From contig CAWBWI010000003.1 in assembly GCA_963792585.1 (NCBI GenBank), forward strand, positions 384,001 to 448,000: a stretch of 64,000 nucleotides of DNA. The letters are read 5' to 3'. Numbering within the stretch: position 1 is the first letter of the stretch; each line of letters opens with the position of its first letter. This stretch comes from Candidatus Eiseniibacteriota bacterium. Lineage in GTDB: Bacteria; Eisenbacteria; RBG-16-71-46; CAIMUX01; VGJL01. Under the pieces are notes generated by a model. That model saw only the letters and a program-made list of their open reading frames with translations. It was not told where the DNA came from and did not search any database. A program made the translations under genes and the position numbers. Positions 6,093 to 32,179 of the stretch are shown here, one piece after another.

Positions 6093-6103
6093 GTCGTCCC
6101 CCC

Positions 6104-6355
6104 CTAGGCCTGGGTGAACTCGCGAACCAGCTTCGCGATCTTCGTGACCGAGTCGAACGCTTCAGGCGAAGCCTTGGCGTCGGGAATCGAGATCTTGTAC
6201 TTCTTCTCGAGGAAGGCCTTCAGCGAGACCATCGAGAAGGAGTCGACGATCCCGCTCGAAATGAGCGGGGAATCGACGTCGATCTCGGTATCCGAGTCCT
6301 CGTCGAGGTATTCCTTCTTCACGTACTCCAGGATTGCCTTGTGCAGCTCGTCCAT
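6104..6355 (-). CDS. Acyl carrier protein
   Basis: 83 aa, acidic, GIVDSFSMV phosphopantetheine-serine motif. Confidence 0.9.
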   Translation of the reverse strand: MDELHKAILEYVKKEYLDEDSDTEIDVDSPLISSGIVDSFSMVSLKAFLEKKYKISIPDAKASPEAFDSVTKIAKLVREFTQA

Positions 6356-6413
6356 CTCATCCTCCCCTTGCTTCAGTCCACACCCATGGAACGTTCTAGA
6401 GAACCGGTTTCGA

Positions 6414-8114
6414 CTAGTCGTTTTCCAGCGTCGAGGTATCGCCGATCGGCTCGCCCCACTCCTTCGCGCGCAGGAGGCGCCGGAGAATCTTCCCGCTGCG
6501 CGTCTTGGGCAGCGACGGGACGAACTCGATCTCCTGGGGCATCGCGAGCGGAGAGAGCCGCTTGCGGATGTAGTTCATGATGTCCAGCTCGAGATCGTCG
6601 CTGGCTACGAAGCCCGGCTTCAGGGCGACGAAAGCCTTCACGACCTCCATGTTGACCGGGTCGGGCTTGCCCACGGCGGCCGACTCCGCGACCGCCGGGT
6701 GCTCGAGCAACGCCGATTCGATCTCGAACGGGCCGACGAGGTGGCCGCCCGTGTTGATGACGTCGTCATCGCGGCCCACGAACCAGAAGTAGCCCTCCGG
6801 GTCGATCGACGAGCGGTCGCCGCAGAGGTACCAGCCGTTCTTGAACTTCCCCTCGTAGGTCGTCGGGTTCTTCCAGTAGGTTCGGAACATCGACGGCCAG
6901 CCGGGTCGCAGGGCGATCAGCCCGACCTTGCCCGGATCGTTGATCGGCTCGAACGACTGAGGGTCGACGACCGTTGCGGTGATTCCGGGGAACGGCTTGC
7001 CCATCGAACCGGGCTTGATCGGCATACCGGGGTAGTTCGAGATCATGATCGAGCCTGTCTCGGTTTGCCAGTACGAGTCGTGGAACATCATCCCGTAGGC
7101 TTCCTTCGACCAGATGACCGCCTCGGCGTTCAACGGCTCGCCCACGCTGGCGAGGTGGCGGAGCGAGGACAGGTCGTGTTTCCTCACCAGCTCGACGCCG
7201 TCCTTCATCAGGAGACGGATCGCGGTCGGCGCGGAATACCAGACCGTGACCTTGTACTTCTCGATCGTCTTGTACCAACGTTCGCTCGAGAAGCCGCTGT
7301 CGAGGACGACCTGGGTCACGCCGCAGCTCCACGGCCCGATGATCCCATACGAAGTCCCCGTGACCCAGCCGGGGTCGGCCGTGCACCAGTAGATGTCGTC
7401 CTTGGTGACGTCGAGCACCCACTTCGTCGAGAGGTGCTGCGCGAAGATCGATCCATGGACGTGCAACGCGCCCTTCGGCTTGCCCGTCGTGCCGGATGTG
7501 TAGTGGAGGACCGAAGGGGTCTCCGCATCGGCCTTGAACCAGTCGAGCGTCTCGACGCGCGGCGCCTTGGCGAAGTCGAAGGCGAGCTCGCCTTCCTTCA
7601 TCTTCTCTGCCTCACCGTCCACTACAATTATATGGCGCAGGGACGGAAGCTGCTCACGGATGCGCCGGACCTTGTTCGCGTGCTTCTTGGTCGTGATGAC
7701 CGCCGCCGTCTGCGCGTCCTCGAGTCGGGTGATCAGCGAGTCCTCCCCGAAGGCGGAGAAGAGCGGTTGGGCGATCGATCCGTTCTTCAGGATCCCGAGG
7801 AACGAGAAGTAGAGGTCGGGCACCTTGTCCATGAAGATGCAGACGCGGTCGCCGACGCCGATCCCGATCTGGCGCAGCATGGTCGTGAACGCGTTCGAAT
7901 GCACCCGGAGATCGTCGAACGTGTACCGGCGTTCCTCGCCGTCGAAACCTTCCCAGATCATCGCGGTCTTCTGACCCAGACCTTGATCACAGATCCGGTC
8001 GGAGCAGAAGGCGCCGATGTTGAGCGGACTGCCGTCCCGGTACCCGAGTTCCTGCTTGGCGAGGCTCCAGTCGAAGCCCTCGAGACGCTCCTCGTAAGAG
8101 CGGATATTGCTCAC
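6414..8114 (-). CDS. acsA: Acetate--CoA ligase (AcsA-like AMP-forming synthetase)
   Basis: YTSGTTGKPKG, WCTADPGWVTG, YWQTETG, PKTRSGKI motifs; GTG start with RBS. Confidence 0.9.
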   Translation of the reverse strand: MSNIRSYEERLEGFDWSLAKQELGYRDGSPLNIGAFCSDRICDQGLGQKTAMIWEGFDGEERRYTFDDLRVHSNAFTTMLRQIGIGVGDRVCIFMDKVPDLYFSFLGILKNGSIAQPLFSAFGEDSLITRLEDAQTAAVITTKKHANKVRRIREQLPSLRHIIVVDGEAEKMKEGELAFDFAKAPRVETLDWFKADAETPSVLHYTSGTTGKPKGALHVHGSIFAQHLSTKWVLDVTKDDIYWCTADPGWVTGTSYGIIGPWSCGVTQVVLDSGFSSERWYKTIEKYKVTVWYSAPTAIRLLMKDGVELVRKHDLSSLRHLASVGEPLNAEAVIWSKEAYGMMFHDSYWQTETGSIMISNYPGMPIKPGSMGKPFPGITATVVDPQSFEPINDPGKVGLIALRPGWPSMFRTYWKNPTTYEGKFKNGWYLCGDRSSIDPEGYFWFVGRDDDVINTGGHLVGPFEIESALLEHPAVAESAAVGKPDPVNMEVVKAFVALKPGFVASDDLELDIMNYIRKRLSPLAMPQEIEFVPSLPKTRSGKILRRLLRAKEWGEPIGDTSTLEND

Positions 8115-8399
8115 CTTTCCTCCTCCTCCCTCCTTCGTCGGCCACCCTGAAAAGCGGCGTCACCGCTGCGCGCTAGAGTACCAAGGGGGCCGGGGAAGGC
8201 ACAAGCGGCGGGGGAGGGTGTAGCGCGTCAGGCCGGCCTCTGCGCCGACTCCGGACGCGGTGGGGGGTGGGTCGGAGGTCCGCTCCCGGCCCCCGTCCAA
8301 CATTCAGCGCGCCTTGCCGATGCGGGCGGGAGCGTGCTAGCGTGGGCTGCTTTCCCGAAGGCCGCGGGATCGGTGGGACTCCGGAACAGGAAGGATCGG

Positions 8400-9830
8400 A
8401 TGATGGATCCGTTCGATCAGTACGCCGACGAGATGGTCGGCCGGGCATGGGAAGCCGGTGAGAAGTTCCGCCAGTTCACGCAGGAGCAGGTCGACCGGAT
8501 CGTAACGGCGGTCTTCGAGGCTGCCTACGACGCCCGGCTCGAGCTGGCCCGCCTCGCCCACGAAGAGACCGGAATGGGCCTCTACGAGCACAAGGTGATC
8601 AAGAATGCCTGGGCGAGTCTCCTGGTTTACGAGGACATCCGCGAGAAGAAGACGGTGGGGATGATCTCCCACGATCCATCCACCGGAATCACCGAAATCG
8701 CCCAGCCCAAGGGAGTCATCCTGGCGACGATCCCCGTCACGAACCCTACGTCCACGACGATCTTCAAGGCCCTGATCTGCCTCAAGACCCGCAACCCGCT
8801 GATATTGAGTCCGCACCGGGCGGCCCGGAAGGCGACCCGCAGAGCGGCCGAGATCCTCGCGGAGGCGGCCTATCGGGCCGGTGCGCCAACCGATTCGATC
8901 CAGTGGATCACCAAGGCCGAGAGCGAGTACTTCGAGCGGATGATCCGCCACCGCAAGCTCTCGCTCATCCTGGCCACGGGGACGAGCGAGATCGTGCGCA
9001 AGGTGCAGGCGGCGGGGAAGCCGGCGCTGGGCGTCGGTCCCGGAAATGTCCCCGTATACGTTTCGCGATCCTCCGATCTTCAGCTCGCGGCGCAGTCGAT
9101 TGTACATTCGAAGACATTCGACAACGGGACCGTTTGTGCAAGCGAGCAGGCGATCGTCATGCAAGAGGTCGTCGACCACGCGCTACGACCGTTGATGGTG
9201 GAACGCGGGGCATACTTCTGCAGCGAAGAGCAGATGCGCGCACTCGGACCGGTCTGCTACGACGCGGAGCGACGGATGATGCGGGCCGACATCGTCGGCA
9301 AGCCGGCGGCCGAGATCGCCGCGAAGGCGGGCTTCGAGGTGCCCGAAGGGACTCGCCTCTTGATCGCGGAACCCGAGGGGATTGGCGCGGAACACCCGCT
9401 GTCGCACGAGATCCTCGCGCCGGTGCTCTCGTGGTACCGCGTTGCCGACTACGCGGCGGCGATTCGCACCTGCGAGGCACTGAACCACCTCGGGGGGATC
9501 GGTCACACCGTCGGCCTGTACACGAACGAGGAGCGGATCGTCACCGACTTCGCCAAGATGAATGCCGGACGGATCGTTGTGAACACTCCATCGACCGAGG
9601 GGGCCATCGGAGGCATCTACAACGGCCTATCGCCGTCGCTGACCCTTGCGTGTGGAACCGGGGCGGGGAACCTCAGCACCGACAACATCACCGTCGAGCA
9701 CTTGCTCAACATCCACCGTGTCGCGCGCCGGCGGCTGAACCCACGCTGGGCGAGCGTGCCGAGGGAGACATGGCTCGATCCGCGGGTGGGGCCGAAGGGG
9801 ATCCTGGAGATCTACAACCGGAATTACTAG
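8400..9830 (+). CDS. CoA-acylating aldehyde dehydrogenase (stand-alone AdhE N-terminal-domain type)
   Basis: PVTNPTST, GVGPGN, SKTFDNGTVCASEQ (catalytic Cys), PSLTLACG. Confidence 0.9.
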   Translation: MMDPFDQYADEMVGRAWEAGEKFRQFTQEQVDRIVTAVFEAAYDARLELARLAHEETGMGLYEHKVIKNAWASLLVYEDIREKKTVGMISHDPSTGITEIAQPKGVILATIPVTNPTSTTIFKALICLKTRNPLILSPHRAARKATRRAAEILAEAAYRAGAPTDSIQWITKAESEYFERMIRHRKLSLILATGTSEIVRKVQAAGKPALGVGPGNVPVYVSRSSDLQLAAQSIVHSKTFDNGTVCASEQAIVMQEVVDHALRPLMVERGAYFCSEEQMRALGPVCYDAERRMMRADIVGKPAAEIAAKAGFEVPEGTRLLIAEPEGIGAEHPLSHEILAPVLSWYRVADYAAAIRTCEALNHLGGIGHTVGLYTNEERIVTDFAKMNAGRIVVNTPSTEGAIGGIYNGLSPSLTLACGTGAGNLSTDNITVEHLLNIHRVARRRLNPRWASVPRETWLDPRVGPKGILEIYNRNY

Positions 9831-9893
9831 GGGCGGGTGATCCGCCCCTCACGATCCTGCTATTCCCGGGGTACCCCGGGTCTTCGGTTGCTC

Positions 9894-19880: not shown

Positions 19881-19909
19881 TTGACGGCCCCCCGGGATTT
19901 CTCCAGAAT
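19881..19909 (+). promoter_or_regulatory. Putative sigma70 promoter for the tRNA-enzyme operon
   Basis: TTGACG (19881-86), 17-nt spacer, CAGAAT (19904-09), about 90 nt upstream of the tRNA. Confidence 0.55.
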
Positions 19910-20001
19910 TGAATGGCGGGATTGAGACGTCTCTCGTGCGTCGTGGGAGTCAAGGAACCGCGACCCGCTTCGATCCCCCGATTCAGGTGCGTGATTTTTG
20001 T

Positions 20002-20307
20002 GCGTCCGTAGCTCAATCGGAAAGAGAAGTCCCACATACGACGGCCCGAGCACGGTGACGCGGACTGAGAAGCGAGGATATGTCGGTAATGCCTTCTGAC
20101 GTCCGGGTCTGGGGGCAGGAGGAGAGCCGGAACCTCTCTTCCCGACGGATCCCCGGTATTCCCTTTCCTGCTTCGCCTGCCTTCAGTATCGGCGCCACCT
20201 TTCTGAAGGCACGCATGTCACGTGTGAATGCCTCTCGTCGTGGGAAGCTCAAGAGCACCGGCCTTATAATCCGGAGACTGCGGGTTCGAGCCCCGTCGGA
20301 CGCACCA
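20002..20307 (+). tRNA. tRNA with anticodon UAU (reads AUA) interrupted by a ~229-nt structured insertion in the D-loop
   Basis: Acceptor GCGTCCG (20002-08) pairs 7/7 with CGGACGC (20297-303), then A73 and an encoded CCA. D-stem GCTC (20011-14)/GAGC (20253-56). Anticodon arm CCGGC-CTTATAA-TCCGG, TAT at 20265-67. T-arm GCGGG-TTCGAGC-CCCGT. Confidence 0.85.
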
Positions 20308-20357: not shown

Positions 20358-21422
20358 GTGAAACGACCGTCCACTCGCCAGGAGACTCTGGAGCGGGACG
20401 GCGCGCGGGAGAGAATCCCCGCGGGCGTGGATCCCTCGACGCGTCTCGTCGATCTGTCGCCCTACTACGGACACCTGGAGTGCTTTCAGGCTCTCCGTCC
20501 ACTCCTGGTGAAGACGAATCGCTTCACGTATGCGCCCAGCTACCCGCCGAACGAGCGGATGCAGAACACGTGGCTTTCGATCGCACTGGAAGGAATCGCG
20601 ACGCTTGCCGCGCATCGCACCGGGGAGGTCTGGGAGGATCTCGCGATCGTCGGCACGGGCAACGGCCTCGACGCCGTGGGGATCTCCCGAATCGTCCAGC
20701 CGAGGTCGATCATCGCCTCCGATATCCACCCGATCGCACTACAAGCGGCACGATGGAACATCGCCAACTATGTTGCGGAGGATTGCCGGGTCGCGGTTGT
20801 ACAAAGCGATCTCTTCGATGGATATCCGCCCGGGGCCGCATTCGACCTCATCTATGAGAATCTCCCGAACATCCCGGACGAGAAGGAGCTATTCGACGGG
20901 GTCCGCAGCGCGAGCTGTTTCGCGCCACGCGCCCAGCGGGTCGCCACGACGTTCGACCGGCATCTCCTGACCCTCCACCACGATTTTCTCATCCAAGCGC
21001 ACACTCGTCTCCGCGACTCCGGTTGGATCGTGGGTGTGATCGGAGGACGGATCCCGGTGCAGACGATTCACGAGCTGTTTGCGGACGCCGGGTATCGGTC
21101 CACGGTCGCCGCCTTCGGCCTCAAGATCCAGAGCGAGGGCGATGTGGTTCTGCCCGCCTATGCCGCAGCAGAGCAAGAGACCGGCGTCTCCTTCGTCTAT
21201 TACCATCCGCTCGAGGCGTGTCTTGCGATCGTGCGTGAGCTGTCGCAGCCGGAGGATCTTGCCGCGCGCGCGGAATACGCGGGACTGCTCACGGAACGAC
21301 TTCGGCCCCTCCAGATTCCGTCGACCGAAGCCGTACGCCTCCACGCAGGAGGAGCGGCCGTTTGCCACACGGTCTATGTCATGGCGGCTCAGCGAATCTG
21401 TGGTGGTCCCGCGAATGGGTGA
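20358..21422 (+). CDS. Class I SAM-dependent methyltransferase, PrmC/HemK-like
   Basis: IVGTGNGLDA (motif I), ASDIH, QSDLF, DLIYENLPNIP (NPPY-like position); GGAGGAG RBS and GTG start. Confidence 0.8.
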   Translation: MKRPSTRQETLERDGARERIPAGVDPSTRLVDLSPYYGHLECFQALRPLLVKTNRFTYAPSYPPNERMQNTWLSIALEGIATLAAHRTGEVWEDLAIVGTGNGLDAVGISRIVQPRSIIASDIHPIALQAARWNIANYVAEDCRVAVVQSDLFDGYPPGAAFDLIYENLPNIPDEKELFDGVRSASCFAPRAQRVATTFDRHLLTLHHDFLIQAHTRLRDSGWIVGVIGGRIPVQTIHELFADAGYRSTVAAFGLKIQSEGDVVLPAYAAAEQETGVSFVYYHPLEACLAIVRELSQPEDLAARAEYAGLLTERLRPLQIPSTEAVRLHAGGAAVCHTVYVMAAQRICGGPANG

Positions 21423-22182
21423 AGCCGACTACTTCAGGGAAGCCTCCGTCATCGATGCGATGACGGCGGAGCATCGGATTCTGTGGCGAACCCTCTTCGT
21501 GGCCTGTGGGCCGCACATCCGACCCGGCATGCGGGTTCTGGATTTCGGTTGCGGCAACGGTGGGATGCTCGCCTATCTCATGCTTGGGGACGGGAAGAAG
21601 TGGCCCGGGTGTCACTGCTCCCTTGGGATGGGGATCGATCGTCCCGAGCTGAACGCTGTGCTGGCGATGGCCGGCGACCGGCTTGGCCGGGAGTTGCCCG
21701 TCGTGTTCACTTCCGCTTCTCCCCGCTCGTTCCCTGGCCAATTCGATCTCGCCCTTTCGCACGAGGTCATCTACCTCCTCTCGGACCTCGCCGAGACGTT
21801 CCAAGGGTTGCGCGCCGCGTTGAGGCCGGGCGGCGTGATCGCCCTGGCGACGGGATGCCACAGCGAGAACCTCCTCTATCCAAGATGGACGGAAGCTCTT
21901 GCGCGGGTGGGGGTGTGTGCCCACCCGTACGGGATCCCGGACTACGTTCGGGCGCTCCGCGATGCCGGCTTCGAGGATGTCGGCAGTGCCAGCATGCGGA
22001 TGGAGGTCGATGACTACGAGGAATGGCTAGAGGTCCGGGGAGACCCTGAGCCGAATCCCGAGTGGTTCTCCACGTCCGAGGAAGAGCGGCGGTATTACAC
22101 GGAGTTCGGCAAGACGCTGATCACCGCTCGCCGGGCGTTGGCCGAGGAGCCGTCGACTGTACCCCCGCGGGAAGGGCCGTGA
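21415..22182 (+). CDS. Class I SAM-dependent methyltransferase
   Basis: VLDFGCGNGG, FDLALSHEVIY, LRPGG; overlaps the previous gene by 8 nt. Confidence 0.85.
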   Translation: MGEADYFREASVIDAMTAEHRILWRTLFVACGPHIRPGMRVLDFGCGNGGMLAYLMLGDGKKWPGCHCSLGMGIDRPELNAVLAMAGDRLGRELPVVFTSASPRSFPGQFDLALSHEVIYLLSDLAETFQGLRAALRPGGVIALATGCHSENLLYPRWTEALARVGVCAHPYGIPDYVRALRDAGFEDVGSASMRMEVDDYEEWLEVRGDPEPNPEWFSTSEEERRYYTEFGKTLITARRALAEEPSTVPPREGP

Positions 22183-24245
22183 CCGTCGCGCCCGACTATA
22201 TCCCCGAGACCATCGAGGCCAAGTGGCAACGGTTCTGGGAGGAGCGGGGGACGTTCCATGCGCATGCCTGCGGGGCGAGCAAGTTCTACTGCTACAATCC
22301 CGCGCCCTATGTCACCGGCACCCTTCATATGGGTCATGTCCGCAATTACACCTACGGTGATTTCCTCAGCAAGTTCCGGCGTCTTCACGGAGCGAACGTC
22401 CTCTACACGATCGGCTTCGACGCATTCGGCGTGCCCACAGAGGTGGCGGCCATGCGGAAACGGTTGGACCCGGCCGCCTGGACGGCCGGCTGCATCGGGG
22501 AGATGAAGAAGCAGCTTGTTCGAATGGGGTTTGGATTCGATTGGCGACGCTCCTTCTCCACGGCCGATGCGGACTACTACAAGTGGACCCAGTGGATCTT
22601 CATCGAGATGTTTCGGGAGGGCATCGTCTACGAACGGGAAGCGGAGACGCTCTGGTGTCCGCAGTGCGACATGGCCCTCGCCAAGTCGCTCACGGTCGAC
22701 GGCAGGTGCTTCCTGTGCAACATCGCAGTCGAGACGCGCGTCACAAGCCAGTGGTTCCTTCGCATCTCGCGCTATCTGGACCGTCTCAGGGATGATCTCG
22801 CCGAGGTCAGGGACCTCAACGGCCAGGCGCGTGCGGGACAGGAGAGTCTCCTCGCCTTCCGCAGCCTCTGGGGTGTCTGGTTGATCGAGCCGAAGACCGG
22901 GACCAAGGTTCTCGCCTGCATGGATTCTCCCGATGACTGGTCCAGGCATCTCGTGTTGGCGGTTCACCCTCAGGATTGGCCGACGCGACGGGCGCTCGCG
23001 GGGATCGCCGTCGAGCCGATCTCGGGCAGGTCCTTCGCAGTCGTCGTCGATCCTATGCTCGACTCGCTCTATCTGGATCAACCCGTGCTGAAGATTGTCC
23101 CGCGGGAGGGCGGAGCGCAGGCAATTGAACATGCGCCGGCGGATGGGATCTTCCCGCTCACGGTGAACGAACAGAAGGACTTCTCTGTTTCGCGCCAGCG
23201 ACTCTGGGGAACGCCCATCCCGATGGTCCGGTGTGAGACGTGCGGAGTCGTCCCGGTGGAGGCCGCGGATCTTCCCGTGCGGTTGCCGCGGATCGAAGCC
23301 GATGGCTCCGGACGGCTGCGGCGAACCGAACCCGGGTGGGACGTTCGCGCGTGCCCTTCATGCAAACGGCCGGCAATGCTCGATCCCCAGGTCATGGATT
23401 GCCACTTCGATGCGCTATGGCACTACTGGCGCCCCTGTGTTGGCTCCACGGCGGAGTTTCCTTTCGACTCGGACGAAGCCCGGTATTGGATGCCGGTCGA
23501 CCAGATCCAATTCGGCAGGGACACGATTCCGTTCCTCCTGACCCTGCGGCTGTTCACGAAGTTCCTGAAGGACCGCGGGCTCTCGGATTGCTCGGAGTTC
23601 GCCCGCGAGATGCTTGCGCACGGTCTGATCCTCATGGGCAATCGGAAGATGAGCAAGCACATCGGCAACGTCGTCGATCCGGAGCAAATGATCACCCGTT
23701 TCGGGGCGGACAGTCTTCGGTTCTATGTCCTCGCCAGGAGCGATCCCAGGAGCGATTATAGCTGGTCGGAGGCGAGCCTCGCGCGCTATCACGAGCTCTT
23801 GAAGCACTACTACGAGGATCTGGACCCTGAGACTTCGAGGGAGACAGCGGCGGCGGGAATGGAGGGATCGAAGACGGGATCCGCGGGGAAGTACCTGTCG
23901 ATCTTTCTCACAAAGGTGTTGCGCGAGGTGGAGGTACTGGAGTCGAGCGTTGAAAGTGGACGGTTCGACATCTACGCGCGGGCGGTTGCGCGAATCCTGG
24001 AAGCGCTTCATCTGTTCAAGGAGCGGTACTACACGCAGGCGGGATCGTGGGGGCGGGAAGCGTGGGGGAAGTGCGCGGAGCAGTCCATTCTCTACCTCGC
24101 CCCGATCGCGCCACACATCGCGGAGGAGTGCTGGGAGCGAAGCGGCCGAGCGCCGGGAGTCTTCGCGGGAGTGCGTTGGCCATCAGACGGCCCGATGGTC
24201 GTTCGAGATTTGGTGGAGGAAGCGAAGAGGCGGAGGCAGTCGTGA
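22179..24245 (+). CDS. Divergent leucyl-tRNA synthetase-like class Ia aminoacyl-tRNA synthetase (688 aa)
   Basis: HMGH and KMSKH signatures, GFDAFG, YYKWTQWIF, SRQRLWGTPIP, Zn-knuckle CxxC pairs, LAPIAPHIAEECW; shrunken CP1 region; GTGA overlap. Confidence 0.9.
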   Translation: MTVAPDYIPETIEAKWQRFWEERGTFHAHACGASKFYCYNPAPYVTGTLHMGHVRNYTYGDFLSKFRRLHGANVLYTIGFDAFGVPTEVAAMRKRLDPAAWTAGCIGEMKKQLVRMGFGFDWRRSFSTADADYYKWTQWIFIEMFREGIVYEREAETLWCPQCDMALAKSLTVDGRCFLCNIAVETRVTSQWFLRISRYLDRLRDDLAEVRDLNGQARAGQESLLAFRSLWGVWLIEPKTGTKVLACMDSPDDWSRHLVLAVHPQDWPTRRALAGIAVEPISGRSFAVVVDPMLDSLYLDQPVLKIVPREGGAQAIEHAPADGIFPLTVNEQKDFSVSRQRLWGTPIPMVRCETCGVVPVEAADLPVRLPRIEADGSGRLRRTEPGWDVRACPSCKRPAMLDPQVMDCHFDALWHYWRPCVGSTAEFPFDSDEARYWMPVDQIQFGRDTIPFLLTLRLFTKFLKDRGLSDCSEFAREMLAHGLILMGNRKMSKHIGNVVDPEQMITRFGADSLRFYVLARSDPRSDYSWSEASLARYHELLKHYYEDLDPETSRETAAAGMEGSKTGSAGKYLSIFLTKVLREVEVLESSVESGRFDIYARAVARILEALHLFKERYYTQAGSWGREAWGKCAEQSILYLAPIAPHIAEECWERSGRAPGVFAGVRWPSDGPMVVRDLVEEAKRRRQS

Positions 24246-25042
24246 ATCGGGAAGTCATGTGCGACCACTTGGTTCGGTTGATCGACGATCTGGAACGGTG
24301 CTCCGGCGGGGCGCCGCGCGACCTGCTCCGCGCCGCGTTGTGCATCGAGCACGTCGTGATGTCCGATCTACTGCCTCCGGAGGAGGAGGACGCCGTCTTT
24401 GCGGACCCGAGGATCGCCGTGCGGGCGTCCGGTTGTCAGAGGATCTTCTCGGATCTCGAGAGCACCATCGAGCGGAGCATGGCCGAGGTTGTGCGGCTCG
24501 GCGGGGCCGAAACGACTTGGGCCCGGGAGAACGTGAGCCAGCACTACATTGCGCGTTACGAGTACCTTTCCCAGTGCGAGATCGAGCTGGCGCGGATGGG
24601 ACCGGAGGATCGTGTCCTCTTCATCGGGAGCGGGTACCTGCCGATCACGGCGTTCGAATACGTCCGTCAGTCCGGCTGCAAGGTTGACTGCGCCGACTTC
24701 GTCCCGGAAGCGATCGATTGCGCCCGAAAGATCACGGAACGGATCGGGATGACGGAGCGTGTGCGGTTCTTCCAGACGCGAGGGGAGCAGCACGATCCCT
24801 CCCCATACGACGTCATCCTCGTAGGTGTGCTTGCACTGCCGAAACGGGCGATCCTGTCCCACCTGGATGCGGGGGCGAAGGGCGGATGCCGTGTGCTGTG
24901 TCGGACCACCTACGGGCTGCGGCAACTCGTCTACCAGCAAGCGTCCTACGAGGTGCGGAGCCTCCGTCGACTCGTTCCGGGAGAACGAAGCGTGGCCCGT
25001 GGGGAGCGGGTCATTTCTGCGGAGCTCTTGAGGGCTTCTTGA
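24242..25042 (+). CDS. Nicotianamine synthase-like SAM-dependent aminocarboxypropyl transferase
   Basis: Y..RY..L...E followed by VLFIGSGYLPIT (NAS-family FIGSGPLPLT), and RTTYGLRQLVY; GTGA overlap with the synthetase gene. Confidence 0.75.
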   Translation: MNREVMCDHLVRLIDDLERCSGGAPRDLLRAALCIEHVVMSDLLPPEEEDAVFADPRIAVRASGCQRIFSDLESTIERSMAEVVRLGGAETTWARENVSQHYIARYEYLSQCEIELARMGPEDRVLFIGSGYLPITAFEYVRQSGCKVDCADFVPEAIDCARKITERIGMTERVRFFQTRGEQHDPSPYDVILVGVLALPKRAILSHLDAGAKGGCRVLCRTTYGLRQLVYQQASYEVRSLRRLVPGERSVARGERVISAELLRAS

Positions 25043-25306: not shown

Positions 25307-26029
25307 ATGATGAGGAAGGTCGCCCTGCTCCTTGTTCTGAGTTCCATTTTCGGAGGCGGCGCGCTCGCCGCCAATCCCAGCCTGAGTGCGGGAGGTGGCG
25401 GCAGCCCGAACGTCCTCAACTCCGGCCGAGAAGTTATCTGGAGTGAGCCGCCTGACCTCGAAGGTCTGATCGCCTCGTCGGAAGTCATCGGGCAATTCGC
25501 CCTTGAGACGGAAATCGCCAACGACTTCTATATCTCCTGGGATACCTGTATCGGCGGCGCTCGCTGGTGGGGCGGTTATTACAACAACAACGGCTGTAGC
25601 GACATTGGCATCGCGACAAACTGGAACCTCCGATTCTACGATGACGGCGGCTGCGTTCCGTTGACGACTCTTTCCGAGACGGTGGGCGCCTTCGCAAACG
25701 AGACTTTCATTTACTGCCAGGGCGGGTTCTACCCGGTCTTCCAGTACGAAGCCTACACATCATACGTCTACATCACGGCGAACACCCTGTACTGGTTCGG
25801 CGCACAGGCATCCGATCACGCGTTTCCGCCGCAGGTGGGCCGTATCGCCTCCGCATGGGTCGTCGGCTGCGACACGGTGTTCAAGAGTGCCTACTTCTCG
25901 TACCCCGACTGGACGCCCGGCATCGACGTGTTCGGTGTCGCCTTCGATGCCAGCCAGGAGTTCGAGAACTGGTGCATAGTTCCGACCGTGACGACCACGT
26001 GGGGCGCCGTGAAGGGGCTCTACCGGTAG
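25307..26029 (+). CDS. Secreted tandem paralog 1 (ANDF/WWGGY domain, C-terminal TTWGAVKGLYR)
   Basis: AGGAGG RBS, signal peptide, family motifs; single ATA codon at 25976. Confidence 0.9.
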   Translation: MMRKVALLLVLSSIFGGGALAANPSLSAGGGGSPNVLNSGREVIWSEPPDLEGLIASSEVIGQFALETEIANDFYISWDTCIGGARWWGGYYNNNGCSDIGIATNWNLRFYDDGGCVPLTTLSETVGAFANETFIYCQGGFYPVFQYEAYTSYVYITANTLYWFGAQASDHAFPPQVGRIASAWVVGCDTVFKSAYFSYPDWTPGIDVFGVAFDASQEFENWCIVPTVTTTWGAVKGLYR

Positions 26030-26333
26030 GTCCGGCGAATGGGGAGGTCCGCTGTGGCGCAGCGGGCTTCAGGTGGCACACAAAGAGTTTGGTGGCGTTG
26101 GGGCGCTCCCGTCGATGCGGCGGGGGCGCTTCTTGCATCCGGCCGCGGCGGCCCTCGGTGGACTCCATCCCCGGGACGGTAGATAATCGACGGCAACAAT
26201 TCCCGACGGCTCTTGGGTCGGGGGTGCAGGCGGCTCGGCGGTCAAACGAGGACGGGCACCGCACCGTGACGCCCGCCTGGTCCCGCGCGTGATCGTCGTT
26301 GTGTGCTGTGACAAACCACAGGAGGGAGTCCTC

Positions 26334-27047
26334 ATGATGATACAGATCGCCCTTGTCCTGAGTCTGGTCGTTGCCAGCGGAGCGCTTGCCATCAACCCAT
26401 CCCTGAGCGGGGGCGGTGGCGGTACGAATGTTCTGAACTCCGGTCGCGAAGTCGTCTGGAGCGAGCCACCGAACCTCGACGGTTTGATCGGGTCGTCGGA
26501 GGTTATTTGGGAGTTCTATGTCGTGACGGAACTTGCCAACGATTTCTTCCTCACTACGAACCACGGCCTCGACATCGCTCGCTGGTGGGGTGGCTATTTT
26601 TACAACAGCAGTTGCGGCGATGTCGGTGTCGCCACAAATTGGAACCTAACATTCTACGATGATGTCGGTTGCATACCGGAACATGTGCTTTACGAGCGTA
26701 TGGGCGTCGATGCGAACGAGACTTTCGTCTATTGCCAAAGCGACGTCTACCCGATCTTCAGCTACGAGGTCGCCGATCTGAACTTCACAGCTCAGGCGAA
26801 TACCCGATACTGGTTCGTCGCGCAGGCAGCTGACCATACGTTCCCGCCCCAGGTAGGTCGCGTCGCTTCCGCCGGAGTCGTCGGCTGCGAGACCGTCTTC
26901 AGAGGGTCCTACTTCTCGTACAACTACTGGACTCCCGTTATCGATGTGTTCGGCGTGGCGTTTGATGCCAGCCAGGAGTTCGAGGAGTATCACATAGTCC
27001 CTACTGAAAGGACCACGTGGGGCGCCGTGAAGGAGCTCTACCGGTAG
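26334..27047 (+). CDS. Secreted tandem paralog 2 (most divergent copy)
   Basis: Same family; ends TTWGAVKELYR; ATA codons at 26340, 26673 and 26994. Confidence 0.9.
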   Translation: MMIQIALVLSLVVASGALAINPSLSGGGGGTNVLNSGREVVWSEPPNLDGLIGSSEVIWEFYVVTELANDFFLTTNHGLDIARWWGGYFYNSSCGDVGVATNWNLTFYDDVGCIPEHVLYERMGVDANETFVYCQSDVYPIFSYEVADLNFTAQANTRYWFVAQAADHTFPPQVGRVASAGVVGCETVFRGSYFSYNYWTPVIDVFGVAFDASQEFEEYHIVPTERTTWGAVKELYR

Positions 27048-27350
27048 GTCCGGCGAATGGAGAGGTCCGCTGTGGCGCAGCGGGCTTCAGGTGGCACACA
27101 AAGAGTTTGGTGGCGATGAGGCGCTTCCGTCGTTGCGGCGGGGCGCTTCTCACGTCCAGTCGCCACAGGCTTGGGTGGACATCGGCCTCGCAGGAGCAGA
27201 TACTCGTAGGCGGCGAATCCCTGCGGCTCTCGAGCCGGGGGATCCGACGGACTGCTGGTCGAGGGAGCCCGCCACCCACCGACCGTCGGTCCGGCCATGG
27301 ACCTGTTCGTCGTTGAGTCTCGTGACAGCCGAAAGGAGGGAATCCTCGCT

Positions 27351-28079
27351 ATGAGGAAGGTCGCCCTTGTCCTTGTCCTGAGCTGCGTCGCCGGGGGCGG
27401 CGCGCTGGCCGTCAACCCGAGCATCATGGCCGGCGGAGAGGGCACGCAGAACGTCCTAGACTCCGGTCGAGATCCCGTCTGGAGTGAGCCGCCCGATCTA
27501 GAGGGTCTGATCGCTTCGTCGGAAGTTATCGGGCAGGTCGGCCTCGAGACGGAAATCGCAAATGACTTCTACATCGACCATGACGAGTACATCAGTATCG
27601 CCCGCTGGTGGGGCGGATACTACAACAACAACGGCTGCAGTGACATCGGGTACGGCACGAACTGGAATCTGCGCCTCTACGATGACTTGGGCTGTGTTCC
27701 GGGGTCAGTGCTTTCCGAGACTCTAGGGCTGTCGGTGATCGAGGCCTTCGTATACTGCCAGGCTGGCCTCTACCCGGTCTTCGAATACTGGGCATGCGTC
27801 GAGTTCTGGGTCGCGGGGAATACATTGTACTGGTTCGGTGCACAAGCATCCGATCACACGTTCCCACCGCAGGTCGGTCGCGTGGCCTCTGCCGGAGTCG
27901 TCGGCTGCGACTCCGTATTCAAGAGCGCCTACTTCTCGTATCCGGATTGGACGCCCGGTATCGACGTCTTCGGGGTCGCATTCGACGCGAGTCAGGAATT
28001 CGGCAATGGTATCTGCATAGACGGACCTGTCCCTAATCAGCGGACCACGTGGGGCGCCGTGAAGGGGCTCTACCGGTAG
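27351..28079 (+). CDS. Secreted tandem paralog 3
   Basis: Same family; ATA at 28017. Confidence 0.9.
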   Translation: MRKVALVLVLSCVAGGGALAVNPSIMAGGEGTQNVLDSGRDPVWSEPPDLEGLIASSEVIGQVGLETEIANDFYIDHDEYISIARWWGGYYNNNGCSDIGYGTNWNLRLYDDLGCVPGSVLSETLGLSVIEAFVYCQAGLYPVFEYWACVEFWVAGNTLYWFGAQASDHTFPPQVGRVASAGVVGCDSVFKSAYFSYPDWTPGIDVFGVAFDASQEFGNGICIDGPVPNQRTTWGAVKGLYR

Positions 28080-28381
28080 GTCCGGCGAATGGGGAGGTCC
28101 GCTGTGGCGCAGCGGGCTTCAGGTGGCACACAAAGAGTTTGGTGGCGATGAGGCGCTTCCGCCGTTGCGGCGGGGGCGCTTCTTGCGTCCAGCCGCACAG
28201 GCTTCGGTGGACGTCGGCCTCACAGGAGCAGATACTCGTAGGCGGCGAATCAAAGCGGTCACTGAGCCGGGGGATCCGACGGACTGCTGGTCGAAGGAGC
28301 CCGCCTCCCACCAACCGTCGGTCCGGCCATGGATCTGTTCGCCGTTAGTCTCGTGACAGCCGAAAGGAGGGAATCCTCGCC

Positions 28382-29098
28382 ATGAGGAAGGTCGCCCTTG
28401 TCCTTGTCCTGAGCTTCGTCGCCACAGGCGGCGCGCTCGCCATCAACCCGGGCATCATGGCTGGCGGGGGGGGCACGCAGAACGTCCTCAACTCCAGCCG
28501 AGATGTTGTCTGGAGTGAGCCGCCCGACCTCGAAGGTCTGATTGCCTCGTCAGAAGTCATCGGGCAATTGGCTCTCGAGACGGAAATCGCAAACGATTTC
28601 TACCTTCCCTGGGACTACTGGATCTGCGTCGCCCGCTGGTGGGGTGGTTACTACAACAACAACGGCTGCGGCGATGTCGGCATCGCGACGAACTGGAACG
28701 TTCGGTTCTACGATGACGGCGGCTGCGTGCCTCTTACCCTGCTGAACGAGACGCTCGGCGCGTTCGCGAACGAGACCAGCGTCTATTGCCAGGATGGCTT
28801 CTACCCGATCTTTAGGTACGAAGTTGACGTCAGCATGCCGATCACCGGCAACACCCTGTACTGGTTCGGCGCGCAGGCTGCCGACCATGCGTTCCCGCCG
28901 CAGTGCGGCCGCGTTGCCTCCGGCTCCGTCGTCGGTTGCGACACGGTGTTCAAGAGTGCCTACTTCTCGTACTCCGACTGGACGCCCGGCATCGACGTGT
29001 TCGGTGTTGCGTTCGACGCCAGCCAGGAGTTCGTGATCGGGTGCATAGTTCCAACCGTCACGACCACGTGGGGCGCCGTGAAGGGGCTCTACCGGTAG
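28382..29098 (+). CDS. Secreted tandem paralog 4
   Basis: Same family; ATA at 29045. Confidence 0.9.
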   Translation: MRKVALVLVLSFVATGGALAINPGIMAGGGGTQNVLNSSRDVVWSEPPDLEGLIASSEVIGQLALETEIANDFYLPWDYWICVARWWGGYYNNNGCGDVGIATNWNVRFYDDGGCVPLTLLNETLGAFANETSVYCQDGFYPIFRYEVDVSMPITGNTLYWFGAQAADHAFPPQCGRVASGSVVGCDTVFKSAYFSYSDWTPGIDVFGVAFDASQEFVIGCIVPTVTTTWGAVKGLYR

Positions 29099-29406
29099 GT
29101 CCGGCGAATAGAGAGGTCCGCTGTGGCGCAGCGGGCTTCAGGTGGCACATAAAGAGTTTGGTGGCGATGGGGCGCTCCCGTCGATGCGGCGGGGGCGCTT
29201 CCTGCATCCGCCGCGCAGGACGACGTTTGACCCCCCGTCCCAATGAGCGGATACTCATAGGCGGCAGATCCTACCCGGCATGTGTGCCGACTGGATCTGA
29301 CGGTCCTGCGATTGTGGTGAGACCCGCCGCGTGGGCAGCAGCCAGTCCGGTCCGGGACTTGTTCGCACGTGAGTTCCGCAACAAGCGAAAGGAGGGAATC
29401 CTCGCC

Positions 29407-30129
29407 ATGAGGAAGGTCGCCCTTGTCCTTGCGCTGAGTTTCGTCGCCGCAGGCGGTGCACTCGCCGTCAATCCGAGCATCATGGCCGGTGGGGGGGGCA
29501 CGCAGAACGTCCTCAACTCCGGCCGTGACGTGGTCTGGGGTGAGCCGCCCGATCTCGATGGCCTCATCGCCTCGTCAGAAGTCATCGGACAACTCGCTCT
29601 CGAGACGGAAATCGCAAATGACTTCTGGGTTGATCATGACGGCTCCATCGATTGTGCCTGCTGGTGGGGAGGGTACTACAATAACAACGGCTGCGGTGAC
29701 ATCGGTATCGCTACGAACTGGAACCTCCGGTTCTACGATGACGGTGGCTGCGTTCCGCTGTCGGTCCTCGCCGAGACGGTGGGCGCCTTCGCTTACGAGA
29801 CCAGTGTGTACTGTCAGGGTGGGCTCTACCCGGTCTTCCAGTACGAAGCTGGCGTCGACTTCCAGATCACGGGGAACACATTGTACTGGTTCGGCGCGCA
29901 GGCATCCGACCACACGTTTCCGCCGCAGGTAGGCCGTATCGCCTCCGCAGGGGTCGTCGGCTGCGACTCCGTGTTCAAGAGTGCCTACTTCTCGTACCCC
30001 GACTGGACGCCTGGTATCGACGTATTCGGTGTCGCCTTCGATGCGAGTCAGGAGTTTAGGGAATACTGCATACTACCTGTCGGCACGCAGCGGACCACGT
30101 GGGGCGCCGTGAAGGGGCTCTACCGGTAG
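29407..30129 (+). CDS. Secreted tandem paralog 5
   Basis: Same family; ATA at 30070. Confidence 0.9.
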   Translation: MRKVALVLALSFVAAGGALAVNPSIMAGGGGTQNVLNSGRDVVWGEPPDLDGLIASSEVIGQLALETEIANDFWVDHDGSIDCACWWGGYYNNNGCGDIGIATNWNLRFYDDGGCVPLSVLAETVGAFAYETSVYCQGGLYPVFQYEAGVDFQITGNTLYWFGAQASDHTFPPQVGRIASAGVVGCDSVFKSAYFSYPDWTPGIDVFGVAFDASQEFREYCILPVGTQRTTWGAVKGLYR

Positions 30130-30432
30130 GTCCGGCGAATGGGGAGGTCCGCTGTGGCGCAGCGGGCTTCAGGTGGCACACAGAGAGTTTGGTGGCGATG
30201 AGGCGCTTCCGCCGTTGCGGCGGGGGCGCTTCTCACGTCCGGCCGCAGCAGGCTTCGGTGGACATCGGCCTCACAGGAGCAGATACTCGTAGGCGGCGAA
30301 TCCCTGCGGCTCTCGGGCCGGGGGATCCGACGGACTGCTGGTCGAGGAGCCCGCCTCCCACCGACCCTCGGTCCGGCCATGGACCTGCTCGTCGTTGGGT
30401 CTCGTGACAGCCGAAAGGAGGGAATCCTCGCC

Positions 30433-31158
30433 ATGAGGAAGGTCGCCCTTGTCCTTGTCCTGAGCTTCGTCGCCACAGGCGGCGCGCTCGCCATCAACCC
30501 GAGCCTGAGTGCGGGGGGTGGCGGCAGCCCGAACGTCCTCAACTCCGGCCGATACGTCATCTGGAGTGAGCCGCCTGACCTCGAAGGTCTGATCGCCTCG
30601 TCGGAAGTCATCGGGCAATTCGCCCTCGAGACGGAAATCGCCAACGACTTCTACGTCCCCTGGGATACCTGTGTTGGTCTCGCTCGCTGGTGGGGAGGCT
30701 ACTACAATAACGCCGGTTGCGGTGACATCGGTGTCGCTACGAACTGGAACCTCCGATTCTACGATGACGGTGGCTGCGTTCCGTTGTCGATCCTGTCCGA
30801 GACGGTGGGGGTCTTCGCGAACGAGACCTTCATCTACTGCCAGGGCGGGTTCTATCCGGTCTACCAGTACGAAACCGCCGCAGTATACGTCGCCGTCACG
30901 GCGAACACGCTGTACTGGTTCGGCGCGCAGGCATCGGATCACGCGTTTCCGCCGCAGGTGGGCCGTATCGCTTCTGCATCGGTCGTCGGTTGCGACACGG
31001 TGTTCAAGAGTGCCTACTTCTCGTATCCCGACTGGACGCCTGGCATCGACGTGTTCGGTGTCGCCTTCGATGCCAGTCAGGAATTCGAGAACTACAATTG
31101 CGGCATAGTTCCAACTCAGAAGACCACGTGGGGCGCCGTGAAGGGGCTCTACCGGTAG
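30433..31158 (+). CDS. Secreted tandem paralog 6
   Basis: Same family; ATA at 31105. Confidence 0.9.
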   Translation: MRKVALVLVLSFVATGGALAINPSLSAGGGGSPNVLNSGRYVIWSEPPDLEGLIASSEVIGQFALETEIANDFYVPWDTCVGLARWWGGYYNNAGCGDIGVATNWNLRFYDDGGCVPLSILSETVGVFANETFIYCQGGFYPVYQYETAAVYVAVTANTLYWFGAQASDHAFPPQVGRIASASVVGCDTVFKSAYFSYPDWTPGIDVFGVAFDASQEFENYNCGIVPTQKTTWGAVKGLYR

Positions 31159-31462
31159 GTCGGGCGAATGGAGAGGTCCGCTGTGGCGCAGCGGACTTCA
31201 GGTGGCACACAGAGAGTTTGGTGGCGTTGGGGCGTCCCTGTCGTTGTGACGGGGGCGCTTCATACGTCCAGCCGCCACAGGCTTCGTTGGACATCGGCCA
31301 CACAGGAGCAGATACTCGTGGGCGGCGAATCCCTGCGGCTCTCGGGCCGGGGGATCCGACGGACTGCTGGTCGAGGGAGTCCGCCTCCCACCGACCGTCG
31401 GTCCGGCCATGGACCTGCTCGTCGTTGGGTCTCGTGACAGCCGAAAGGAGGGAATCCTCGCC

Positions 31463-32179
31463 ATGAGGAAGGTCGCCCTTGTCCTTGTCCTGAGCTTCGT
31501 CGCCACAGGCGGCGCGCTCGCCGTCAACCCGAGCCTCATGGCCGGTGGGGGGGGCACGCAGAACGTCCTCAACTCCGGCCGAGATACCTACTGGAGTGAG
31601 CCGCCCGATCTGGAGGGTCTGATCGCGTCCTCGGAAGTCATCGGGCAGTTCGGCCTCGAGACGGAAATCGCAAACGACTTCTATCTCACCCAGAACGCCA
31701 CTGTCTGGGCCGTCTGGTGGGGTGGGTACTACAACAACAATGGTTGTGGCGACATCGGTGTTGCAACGAACTGGAATCTTCGGTACTACGACGACGGTGG
31801 CTGTGTTCCGCTGAACACGGTTTCCGAAGGTCTCGGCGCGTATGCGAACGAGAACTTCGTCTATTGTCAGGGCGGGTTCTACCCGATCTTCCGGTACACG
31901 GCCGACGTCTGCTGCGCGGTTCTCGCGAATACGCTGTACTGGTTCGGCGCGCAGGCAGCCGATCACGCGTTCCCGCCTCAGGTCGGCCGCGTAGCCTCTG
32001 CCGGAGTCGTCGGCTGCGACTCCGTGTTCAAGAGCGCCTACTTCTCGTACCCCGACTGGACGCCCGGCATCGACGTGTTCGGCGTTGCCTTCGATGCGAG
32101 TCAGGAGTTTGAACTGGGCATATGCGGGATCGCGACCCAGAAGACCACGTGGGGCGCCGTGAAGGGGCTCTACCGGTAG
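31463..32179 (+). CDS. Secreted tandem paralog 7
   Basis: Same family; ATA at 32120. Confidence 0.9.
   Translation: MRKVALVLVLSFVATGGALAVNPSLMAGGGGTQNVLNSGRDTYWSEPPDLEGLIASSEVIGQFGLETEIANDFYLTQNATVWAVWWGGYYNNNGCGDIGVATNWNLRYYDDGGCVPLNTVSEGLGAYANENFVYCQGGFYPIFRYTADVCCAVLANTLYWFGAQAADHAFPPQVGRVASAGVVGCDSVFKSAYFSYPDWTPGIDVFGVAFDASQEFELGICGIATQKTTWGAVKGLYR

Follow-up and report, generated by a model that had tools for sequence, protein, structure and literature searches.

The window analysed here, a stretch of 64,000 nucleotides, raises the question of why two predicted SAM-dependent methyltransferases (MT1 and MT2) and an enzyme resembling NAS/CntL should be encoded together with a paralogue of leucyl-tRNA synthetase (LeuRS). 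To our knowledge, the only natural additions to the genetic code are selenocysteine and pyrrolysine, both of which occur at stop codons. Based on sequence analysis, we would give an even chance to the explanation that the genes form a pyrrolysine-like cassette, wherein a SAM-derived amino acid would be made and inserted at AUA codons in competition with tRNA-Ile2.

Organization and conservation of the cassette

The four protein-coding genes overlap by eight nucleotides at 21415-22 (MT1/MT2) and by a GTGA at both 22179-82 and 24242-45. These overlaps, together with the conserved gene order in a second genome (G005), confirm the single operon proposed in an earlier, sequence-only reading of this DNA. 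That reading captured the four genes, but missed the tRNA gene upstream and the ATA-bearing genes downstream (Table 1). The family profile searches that it proposed assign MT2 to Methyltransf_23 (E = 4e-14), the synthetase to tRNA-synt_1, and the protein encoded at 24242-25042 to the NAS family PF03059 (E = 9.5e-12, over the cut-off). Matches of MT1 to class I methyltransferase profiles are weak and fall under the curated cut-offs.

Table 1. Features of the cassette and of the adjacent secreted-protein genes, with positions in the window.
Feature	Position	Strand	Remarks
Candidate sigma-70-like promoter	19881-19909	+	9/12 consensus match, upstream of tRNA
tRNA 5′ part	20002-20023	+	acceptor strand 20002-20008, D-stem strand 20011-20014, D-loop start
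D-loop insert	20024-20250	+	~227 nt, folded; long irregular stem, branched head
tRNA 3′ part	20251-20307	+	D-stem strand, anticodon 20265-20267, short variable loop, T-arm, A73, encoded CCA
MT1	20358-21422	+	SAM-dependent methyltransferase, closest solved fold MmtN
MT2	21415-22182	+	class I methyltransferase; top PDB sequence match phosphoethanolamine N-methyltransferase
Synthetase (LeuRS paralogue)	22179-24245	+	HIGH (HMGH), KMSKH; most of CP1 and C-terminal domain absent; amino-acid pocket rebuilt
NAS/CntL-fold aminocarboxypropyl transferase (predicted activity)	24242-25042	+	fold, PF03059
Secreted paralogue 1	25307-26029	+	sole ATA at 25976, in linker
Secreted paralogue 2	26334-27047	+	linker ATA at 26994; two more ATA elsewhere in gene
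Secreted paralogue 3	27351-28079	+	sole ATA at 28017
Secreted paralogue 4	28382-29098	+	sole ATA at 29045
Secreted paralogue 5	29407-30129	+	sole ATA at 30070
Secreted paralogue 6	30433-31158	+	sole ATA at 31105
Secreted paralogue 7	31463-32179	+	sole ATA at 32120

The order tRNA, MT1, MT2, LeuRS paralogue and NAS-like gene is common to the source genome (G000) and G005, and the cassette proteins of the two share 41-46% identity (46% for the synthetase). The tRNA pattern, the synthetase and MT1 are each found in the same two of 206 genomes of the phylum. Two tRNA-bearing loci were read, both from genomes of one family. Indirect evidence from contigs of equal size places MT1 or the NAS-like gene beside the synthetase on at least seven further contigs. 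When genome and metagenome contigs were scanned with the alignment of the synthetase, ordinary LeuRS swamped the output and no locus of the family emerged; the viral contigs scanned gave nothing, and five loci from other genomes led to no neighbouring phylum. Neighbouring genes within the window encode an FG-GAP protein and an array of secreted proteins. The tRNA, synthetase and putative biosynthesis genes are arranged as a cluster, as code expansion of the pyrrolysine type requires.

A tRNA gene with a large D-loop insert

Directly upstream of MT1 is a tRNA gene with the anticodon UAU (20002-20307), whose D-loop is interrupted by a large insert. In its 5′ part, nucleotides 20002-20008 pair with 20297-20303 and nucleotides 20011-20014 pair with 20253-20256, and the 3′ part matches the Rfam tRNA model with 35 bits (E = 2.8e-4). 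All four cloverleaf stems are present, and the D-loop GG, the T-loop and the CCA are intact. The G005 tRNA carries an unrelated insert of ~170 nucleotides at the same D-loop site. Comparison of these two sequences reveals compensatory changes on both sides of the stems at 4:69, 11:24, 27:43 and 28:42, two of which span the insert. The UAU anticodon is constant while both strands of the anticodon stem change, and the anticodon loop is atypical in each of the two tRNAs (C31-U39 mismatch; C33).

The predicted fold of the insert has a z score of −2.6, and none of 200 shuffled sequences folds equally well. Rfam models for group I and group II introns and for known RNA families gave no match to the insert, so neither a known RNA family nor an intron is supported by this search. 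A tmRNA-like tag was rejected because no ORF is conserved between the two inserts; the search for a shared tag ORF gave nothing beyond a three-residue match that we judge to be due to chance.

In three RNA runs from three studies, read depth in bins over the insert ranges from 5100 to 9860, compared to ~2-10 over the synthetase and NAS-like genes. The insert region is ~1000-fold deeper than the synthetase gene in these metatranscriptomes and is the deepest RNA signal of the locus. RNA contigs end 4-5 nucleotides before the anticodon in two studies, and none exhibits a joint that skips the insert, a spliced tRNA being too short for such libraries. Clean splicing of the insert is improbable; more probably, it stays in the tRNA or is nicked at its 5′ edge. 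A tRNA with a 227-nucleotide D-loop insert may not enter the ribosome.

A synthetase with a rebuilt amino-acid pocket

The synthetase scores 391 versus 548 bits with TIGR00396, which is under the LeuRS cut-off. The editing domain (PF13603) is absent from 12 of 12 family proteins, and gaps in the alignment with the genome's own LeuRS correspond to most of CP1 and the C-terminal domain. At positions aligned to M40, F41, F501, Y507, H541 and H545 of Thermus thermophilus LeuRS, which we take to be the residues of the leucine pocket, the protein carries P41, A42, H409, H415, T449 and F452. These pocket motifs differ from those of LeuRS and are invariant in all 13 family rows. The class I features are kept, including HMGH, KMSKH and the alpha-amine-binding D81, and Anticodon_1, for the anticodon-binding helical bundle, is over its cut-off. 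Judged by its motifs, the protein is a class I aminoacyl-tRNA synthetase, but without the hallmarks of housekeeping LeuRS. It is sister to a broad clade of LeuRS-like paralogues that are themselves divergent, one of which is fused to a GNAT domain.

Housekeeping LeuRS, IleRS and TilS, as well as a tRNA-Ile2-like gene, are present in the genome, and thus the tRNA/synthetase pair of the cassette is extra. Replacement of a missing IleRS or TilS was rejected given that both are present, with the ileS match in G000 being in pieces. An intact tRNA-Ile(UAU) at C3:75042 lies in a stretch of foreign composition and was left out of consideration. The earlier proposal that the synthetase uses the product of its neighbours is supported by the rebuilt pocket and by the presence of tRNA(UAU) in the same cassette.

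The SAM-dependent enzymes

A structural model of the NAS-like protein aligns with MtNAS at Z 30.9 (rmsd 2.1 over 253 residues), and the NAS fold, comprising a helical N-domain and a Rossmann domain, extends over its full length. The catalytic Glu81 of MtNAS is matched by the invariant E77. The sequence-only reading is supported in that the product of 24242-25042 has a true NAS fold and is not a plain methyltransferase, with a Z of 30.9 versus 17 for the next unrelated fold. The invariant Y102 falls one residue off the catalytic Y107 of MtNAS, on F106, and coincides with a Tyr of CntL. Likeness to MtNAS (PDB 3FPJ) and CntL (7C9M) covers the whole length (Z 30.9 and 24.2) with the catalytic Glu81 kept (PMC10491745, available text), although identities are only ~21% and 16%. 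The same text describes NAS/CntL enzymes as acting on free amino acids (PMC10491745). Unlike the MtNAS and CntL systems, this gene is linked to a tRNA and a synthetase, and no opine dehydrogenase or transporter lies beside it. The lack of metallophore context noted previously is borne out in the window and at locus L163, where no opine dehydrogenase, exporter or importer adjoins the genes. The PF10100 profile, searched genome-wide, has no match in G000 or G005, but it has none in any control genome either and so does not speak to absence. The cassette also includes no transferase, NRPS or exporter in G000 or G005.

The top structural match of MT1 (Foldseek and VIA) is the Met S-methyltransferase MmtN (PDB 7VVV; Z 21.8, rmsd 3.4, 237 aligned residues), for which the available text reports E127, R132 and E250 as Met-binding residues (PMC9135737). 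However, the identity is 19%, and HemK2 is close behind (Z 19.5). MT2 has weak matches to CmoB/CmoM (E = 7.5e-4 to 0.05).

ATA codons in the linkers of secreted proteins

Downstream of the cassette are seven genes for secreted proteins, every one of which has a single ATA codon in a variable linker located between the folded domain and a Pro/Gly-rich stalk that precedes the C-terminal TWG motif. An unrelated secreted family of G005, which was not found in G000 by search, has a linker ATA in three of its five members. In G000, ATA accounts for 10 of 17 Ile codons within 12 codons past the domain versus 3 of 163 in the bodies of the same genes, and the corresponding values for G005 are 3 of 4 versus 0 of 60. 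The position of the ATA shifts, and neighbouring Ile codons remain ATC or ATT. Codon-keeping at set places, another requirement of pyrrolysine-type code expansion, is thus seen in two genomes.

Within the last 60 codons before TWG, ATA is present in 22 of 188 cases in G000, 9 of 156 in G005, and 0 of 156 in sampled cassette-free relatives; this control sample is partial, and one unsampled gene of G002 has an in-frame ATA. The paralogues contribute 10 of the 22 cases in G000. After collapsing, the counts are 11 of 177 for G000 (p = 2e-4) and 7 of 154 for G005 (p = 1.5e-3), the latter excess not being significant with a cruder 3.5% background (p = 0.10). The seven other codons tested show no difference, and general rare-codon linkers were rejected for this reason. 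The linker ATA is missing in 10 of 20 members of the G000 family and in two of five members of the G005 family, and there is no ATA excess ahead of FlgD-type tails (8/435). Several linker ATA codons occur in the cassette-free genomes G051, G036, G035 and G057, but ATA makes up 23-39% of Ile codons there anyway.

The ~1070 other ATA codons align to I/V/L, as ATC codons do, and these would meet the cassette tRNA too. Full reassignment of AUA was rejected because ATA elsewhere behaves as Ile and TilS is present. Searches based on pairing, folding and EF-Tu/SelB found no signal that selects the linker AUA sites. Duplex energies between insert and mRNA are no better than controls (−70.1 vs −71.6 for G000; −70.2 vs −74.6 for G005), by which a role for the insert as a guide to target mRNAs was rejected. 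Folding of the downstream mRNA differs little (−13.9 vs −11.8; −13.7 vs −13.1), and a motif search found no extra EF-Tu/SelB paralogue.

A possible route to an additional encoded amino acid

In the proposed mechanism, the NAS-fold enzyme would transfer the aminocarboxypropyl group from SAM to an amine acceptor and thereby create a new alpha-amino acid. MT1, which is MmtN-like, and MT2 would methylate S or N either before or after charging, and the side chain would probably be charged. The editing-less synthetase would then activate the new residue and attach it to tRNA(UAU). Because this tRNA would compete with tRNA-Ile2 at AUA, the codon would not be fully reassigned, and its decoding would be partial or would depend on conditions. 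The residue, located between folded domain and stalk, might serve as a point of attachment, cross-linking or cleavage of the surface proteins. In its most specific form, the proposal is that a 23rd encoded amino acid, a methylated aminocarboxypropyl residue from SAM, is charged by a LeuRS-derived enzyme onto a tRNA with a 170-230-nucleotide D-loop extension and placed at AUA codons of surface-protein stalks as a built-in cleavage or anchoring group. We hold this version tentatively, at somewhat less than an even chance, with the link between tRNA and codon based on two genomes of one family.

The closest parallel is pylTSBCD, in which the tRNA, dedicated synthetase and biosynthesis enzymes form one unit and the targets keep one special codon. 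The cassette shares this arrangement. Here, however, the codon is a sense codon, AUA, which remains Ile elsewhere; the synthetase is of class Ia and derived from LeuRS, the chemistry is that of SAM transferases, the D-loop of the tRNA holds a large insert, and the targets are linkers of secreted proteins. The ProRSx/tRNA-ProX pair of Streptomyces and Kitasatospora likewise places an extra synthetase beside a tRNA that bears the anticodon of another amino acid and competes with the normal decoder, but it inserts a standard amino acid proteome-wide, and the available text names no biosynthetic enzymes or favoured sites (PMC10404621). Allo-tRNAs are also non-canonical, with UAU among their commonest anticodons, and selC* has a dedicated synthetase (CysRS*); they have 8/4 or 9/3 acceptor branches, whereas the cassette tRNA has a 7/5 branch, a short variable loop and an insert in its D-loop, and the term D-loop is absent from the text available for that paper (PMC5389517). 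AZE-synthase clusters combine a non-methylating SAM enzyme with a class I synthetase-like gene, although the accessible part of the source mentions no tRNA gene or codon targets (PMC11794875), and AzeJ/VioH are absent among the 50 structural matches listed for the NAS-like protein. Finally, a rare codon, UUA, is kept in an inter-domain linker in the bldA/adpA system, where, as far as the available text describes, a normal cognate tRNA is rate-limiting (PMC10732093), whereas the cassette supplies an additional tRNA together with a dedicated synthetase and enzymes.

Alternative explanations

An unlikely alternative is programmed mistranslation or rare-codon control, in which the pair inserts one of the canonical amino acids (Ile or another) at the linker AUA and the SAM enzymes modify the tRNA or serve elsewhere. 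This would explain the placement of ATA equally well, and has precedents in the tRNA-ProX dedicated beside a ProRS isoform (PMC10404621, in the portion available) and in the linker UUA of adpA (PMC10732093, likewise). The termination of RNA contigs shortly before the anticodon would fit a bulky anticodon-loop modification, and the CmoB/CmoM matches of MT2 point weakly in the same direction. However, NAS/CntL enzymes are described as acting on free amino acids (PMC10491745, available text), as does the nearest fold of MT1, and the rebuilt pocket is common to all members of the synthetase family. Moreover, an Ile-charged copy would be of little control value given that tRNA-Ile2 and TilS already read AUA.

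A non-ribosomal use is slightly less probable again. The synthetase and tRNA might pass the SAM-derived amino acid on to a lipid, a protein or a small molecule; alternatively, the synthetase might act as a stand-alone amide ligase. The insert would keep the tRNA off the ribosome, and the ATA codons would be incidental. The very large insert, the atypical anticodon loops and the GNAT-fused relative in the sister clade are all consistent with this, as are class I tRNA ligases that adjoin AZE synthases in small-molecule clusters (PMC11794875, available text). Arguing against it are the lack of a transferase, NRPS or exporter in the cassette of either genome, the retention of UAU despite changes in both anticodon-stem strands, and the matching ATA codons in adjacent genes of two unrelated families.

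We consider it improbable that stalling, drop-off or template switching at the linker AUA releases a share of the proteins without their C-terminal sorting peptide. The ATA codons do lie exactly at domain ends, an N-alkylated amino acid, which NAS enzymes usually produce, would be a poor peptidyl acceptor, and the large insert is reminiscent of tmRNA. However, the two inserts share no tag ORF, the anticodon arm is intact, and the ATA is not consistently followed by a +1 or −1 stop. Least credible is a cluster for a metallophore or antibiotic, in which the synthetase would be a resistance copy and the tRNA a broken relic, split by an insertion element. Despite the proximity of the NAS fold to MtNAS and CntL, the genes have no opine dehydrogenase or transporter beside them, and the Leu pocket needed by a resistance LeuRS is not conserved. 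In addition, the two halves of the tRNA show covariation across the insert and abundant transcription, and there is no replacement copy.

Implications

Our literature searches found no conserved, highly expressed bacterial tRNA that combines a large D-loop insert with its own synthetase, and such a tRNA would be without a match in this literature even under the rival explanations. If insertion of a SAM-derived amino acid at AUA proves true, the cassette would constitute an addition to the genetic code at a shared sense codon with identifiable targets, and would add a new tRNA-synthetase pair for which the biosynthesis is co-encoded.

Organization and distribution of the cassette

The sequence-only reading had proposed that two methyltransferases (MT1, MT2) and a NAS-like enzyme, translationally coupled to a synthetase, make a methylated aminocarboxypropyl amino acid for that synthetase. 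Direct reading of the sequence confirms the four ORFs and their overlaps, whereas the interpretation is supported in part and is extended here beyond the original claim. A second genome (G005), from another genus of the same family, has the identical gene order with proteins 41-46% identical to those of the genome that holds the window (G000; completeness 84%). Among 206 genomes of the phylum, the same two yielded family-level synthetase matches (>1050 bits; 11 other matches were <510 bits), MT1, and matches to a generic UAU-tRNA pattern restricted to the 3′ part. By indirect placement, at least seven further synthetase-family members apparently share their contigs with MT1 or NAS.

Features of the cassette and its flanks
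Feature	Position	Remark
Leader	19915-19985	carries a T-arm-like hairpin
tRNA(UAU), real 5′ part	20002-20023	acceptor and D-stem strands
tRNA(UAU), Rfam tRNA match	20238-20304	35 bits
MT1	20358-21422	
MT2	21415-22182	
Synthetase	22179-24245	
NAS-like gene	24242-25042	
Secreted-protein array	25307-32179	seven tandem paralogues, ~1 kb apart

A tRNA with a large D-loop insert

The tRNA holds an insert of ~227 nt in its D-loop, and ARAGORN detected no tRNA in the window. It carries the anticodon UAU, discriminator A73, an encoded CCA and a short variable loop. In fold computations, enforcing the four tRNA stems costs ~1 kcal/mol relative to the free minimum, and the 250-nt G005 tRNA adopts, at minimum energy, a complete cloverleaf whose D-loop carries a branched helix. 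Comparison of the two inserts revealed no clear sequence in common. Both-sided changes distinguish the two tRNAs at stem pairs 4:69, 11:24, 27:43 and 28:42, and because the first two span the insert, the tRNA halves are one selected molecule. The anticodon loops are slightly odd, with a C31-U39 mismatch in G000 and C33 in G005. In the leader, 19939-19948 is identical to 20236-20245 (10 nt, insert 3′ strand); this region could be a competitor for the insert 5′ strand, or a tRNA relic.

RNA runs of three bioreactor studies, one from each, contain a strain ~90-95% alike. As judged from contigs, in which strand and exact ends are absent and DNA admixture is possible, the bin 20074-20260 reaches depths of 9372, 5100 and 9860; the synthetase and NAS genes stand at ~2-10 in the same runs. 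A single contig covers 20039-20261 in run X19 and an adapter directly follows 20260 in run X18, indicating that the abundant RNA extends from within the insert past its 3′ edge to the D-stem and the anticodon stem; it ends 4-5 nt short of the anticodon. No insert-skipping joint was found among the RNA contigs, in which an RNA as short as the spliced tRNA would escape notice. We infer that the insert is retained or 5′-nicked and that reverse transcriptase is blocked close to the anticodon.

The synthetase and the associated enzymes

Twelve clusters make up the synthetase family, which bit scores set clearly apart from LeuRS (≥668 versus ≤434 bits). In a rapid IQ-TREE reconstruction from 46 rows, the family forms one branch (100), sister (96) to 11 other divergent LeuRS-like paralogues. 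These relatives (P0057, P0135, P0138, P0142, P0146, P0147, P0154, P0163, P0168, P0185 and P0191) are mostly 700-770 aa with KMSKH, have a different pocket in each case, and include one GNAT-domain fusion. The synthetase keeps HMGH, KMSKH and D81, and lacks PF13603 and the C-terminal domain, which in LeuRS grips the tRNA elbow. Its P41/A42/H409/H415/T449/F452 replace M40/F41/F501/Y507/H541/H545 of T. thermophilus LeuRS, which we take to be pocket residues. G000 also holds LeuRS, IleRS, TilS and a gene that, from its sequence type, is presumably tRNA-Ile2-like. Matches to ileS (G000:C3:267843-270057) and valS (C4:58009-60632) are fragmented, probably by assembly indels.

The predicted NAS-like model (pLDDT 94) matches MtNAS with Z 30.9 and CntL with 24.2; the next fold scores 17. 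Its invariant E77 aligns on MtNAS Glu81, and the alignment at the Tyr107 position is ambiguous (roles of both residues as given in PMC10491745). For MT1 (pLDDT 84), the nearest fold is MmtN (Foldseek E 5e-13; Z 21.8; described in PMC9135737), with HemK2 at 19.5, so the model suggests a small amino acid as substrate. The top PDB match of MT2 is phosphoethanolamine N-methyltransferase (E 8e-10). Five distant MT1 relatives (P0301-P0305; 28-36% identity), one from Aspergillus hancockii, have the ENLPN motif in common and form an uncharacterised MmtN-like family.

ATA codons in secreted-protein genes

The downstream array matches no known Pfam family; five of its seven genes are preceded by a sigma-70-like match, and ~40 related genes occur across the genome. 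The motif [ST]WGx[VI]Kxx[YF]R, the C-terminal end of 24-91 predicted secreted proteins per genome (G000, G002-G005), is common across most of the phylum and is probably a sorting signal. All seven array genes carry a single ATA 7-10 codons ahead of this TWG motif, the sole ATA of the gene in six, and in four paralogues on contig C6 an ATA marks the same edge of the domain. Linkers differ in both length and sequence, with ATC or ATT used for neighbouring Ile codons. ATA counts for linker versus body of the same genes are 10/17 versus 3/163 in G000 and 3/4 versus 0/60 in G005. The G000 background in genes without the TWG tail, from our own gene caller, is 1070/65284 Ile codons, and ATA there aligns to I/V/L as ATC does (246 positions). 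Beside the G005 cassette lie two secreted genes of a family not found in G000, in which three of five members, including both neighbours, carry a single ATA right after the domain.

These statistics count paralogues, which are non-independent. In the last 60 codons of TWG genes, ATA counts are 22/188 in G000 (91 genes), 9/156 in G005 (64 genes; 67 pattern matches) and 0/156 in a sample of cassette-free relatives (43 of 47 matches in G004, 18 of 43 in G003, 10 of 24 in G002 and four G001 genes). One G002 gene outside this sample carries an in-frame ATA, half of the G000 secreted family lacks the linker ATA, and the genome-level excess in G005 gives p 0.10 with a cruder 3.5% background. Across the phylum, leaving out G079, in-frame ATA 5-15 codons before the motif occurs in 10/17 cases in the two cassette genomes and 33/129 in others (p 0.009), the latter falling to 18/109 (p 4e-4) without seven genomes of two families, five of which have measured high background ATA use. 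Outside the window, G000:C3:1-~95000 is compositionally foreign (GC ~0.71; one ATA in ~23000 codons), has its own intact tRNA-Ile(UAU) at 75042-75118, and resembles a fragment of a different organism joined in error.

A proposed mechanism and its alternatives

Of the readings considered, the most likely makes the cassette a counterpart of the pyrrolysine cassette that acts on a sense codon; it is the simplest account covering all parts. An aminocarboxypropyl amino acid would come from the NAS-fold enzyme and be completed by the methyltransferases, and the synthetase, without need of editing, would load tRNA(UAU) while lacking a grip on the elbow, where the insert projects. Because tRNA-Ile2 is still present, insertion at AUA would have to be partial or conditional. 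The main gap is a site-selecting signal, none of which was found by searches for insert-mRNA pairing, local mRNA folding or an EF-Tu/SelB paralogue motif.

The codon's placement between domain and stalk suggests that the AUA residue is an attachment or release point. Speculatively, a sulfonium residue such as S-methylmethionine may break the chain, much as in cyanogen bromide cleavage. The positioned ATA codons might instead belong to a switch using a standard residue, which we consider unlikely, and the enzymes might have a donor role outside the ribosome, for which the chance seems slightly smaller still. That AUA is a signal for stall or release is improbable, and a cluster for metallophore or resistance is very hard to credit.

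In the literature searched, mostly outside subscription journals, neither the cassette nor a bacterial tRNA with a comparable D-loop insert is described; comparisons were drawn from PMC11794875, PMC5389517, PMC10404621 and PMC10732093. If the pyrrolysine-like account is true, the cassette would represent a new category of system, and even if it fails, the tRNA-synthetase system is apparently undescribed.
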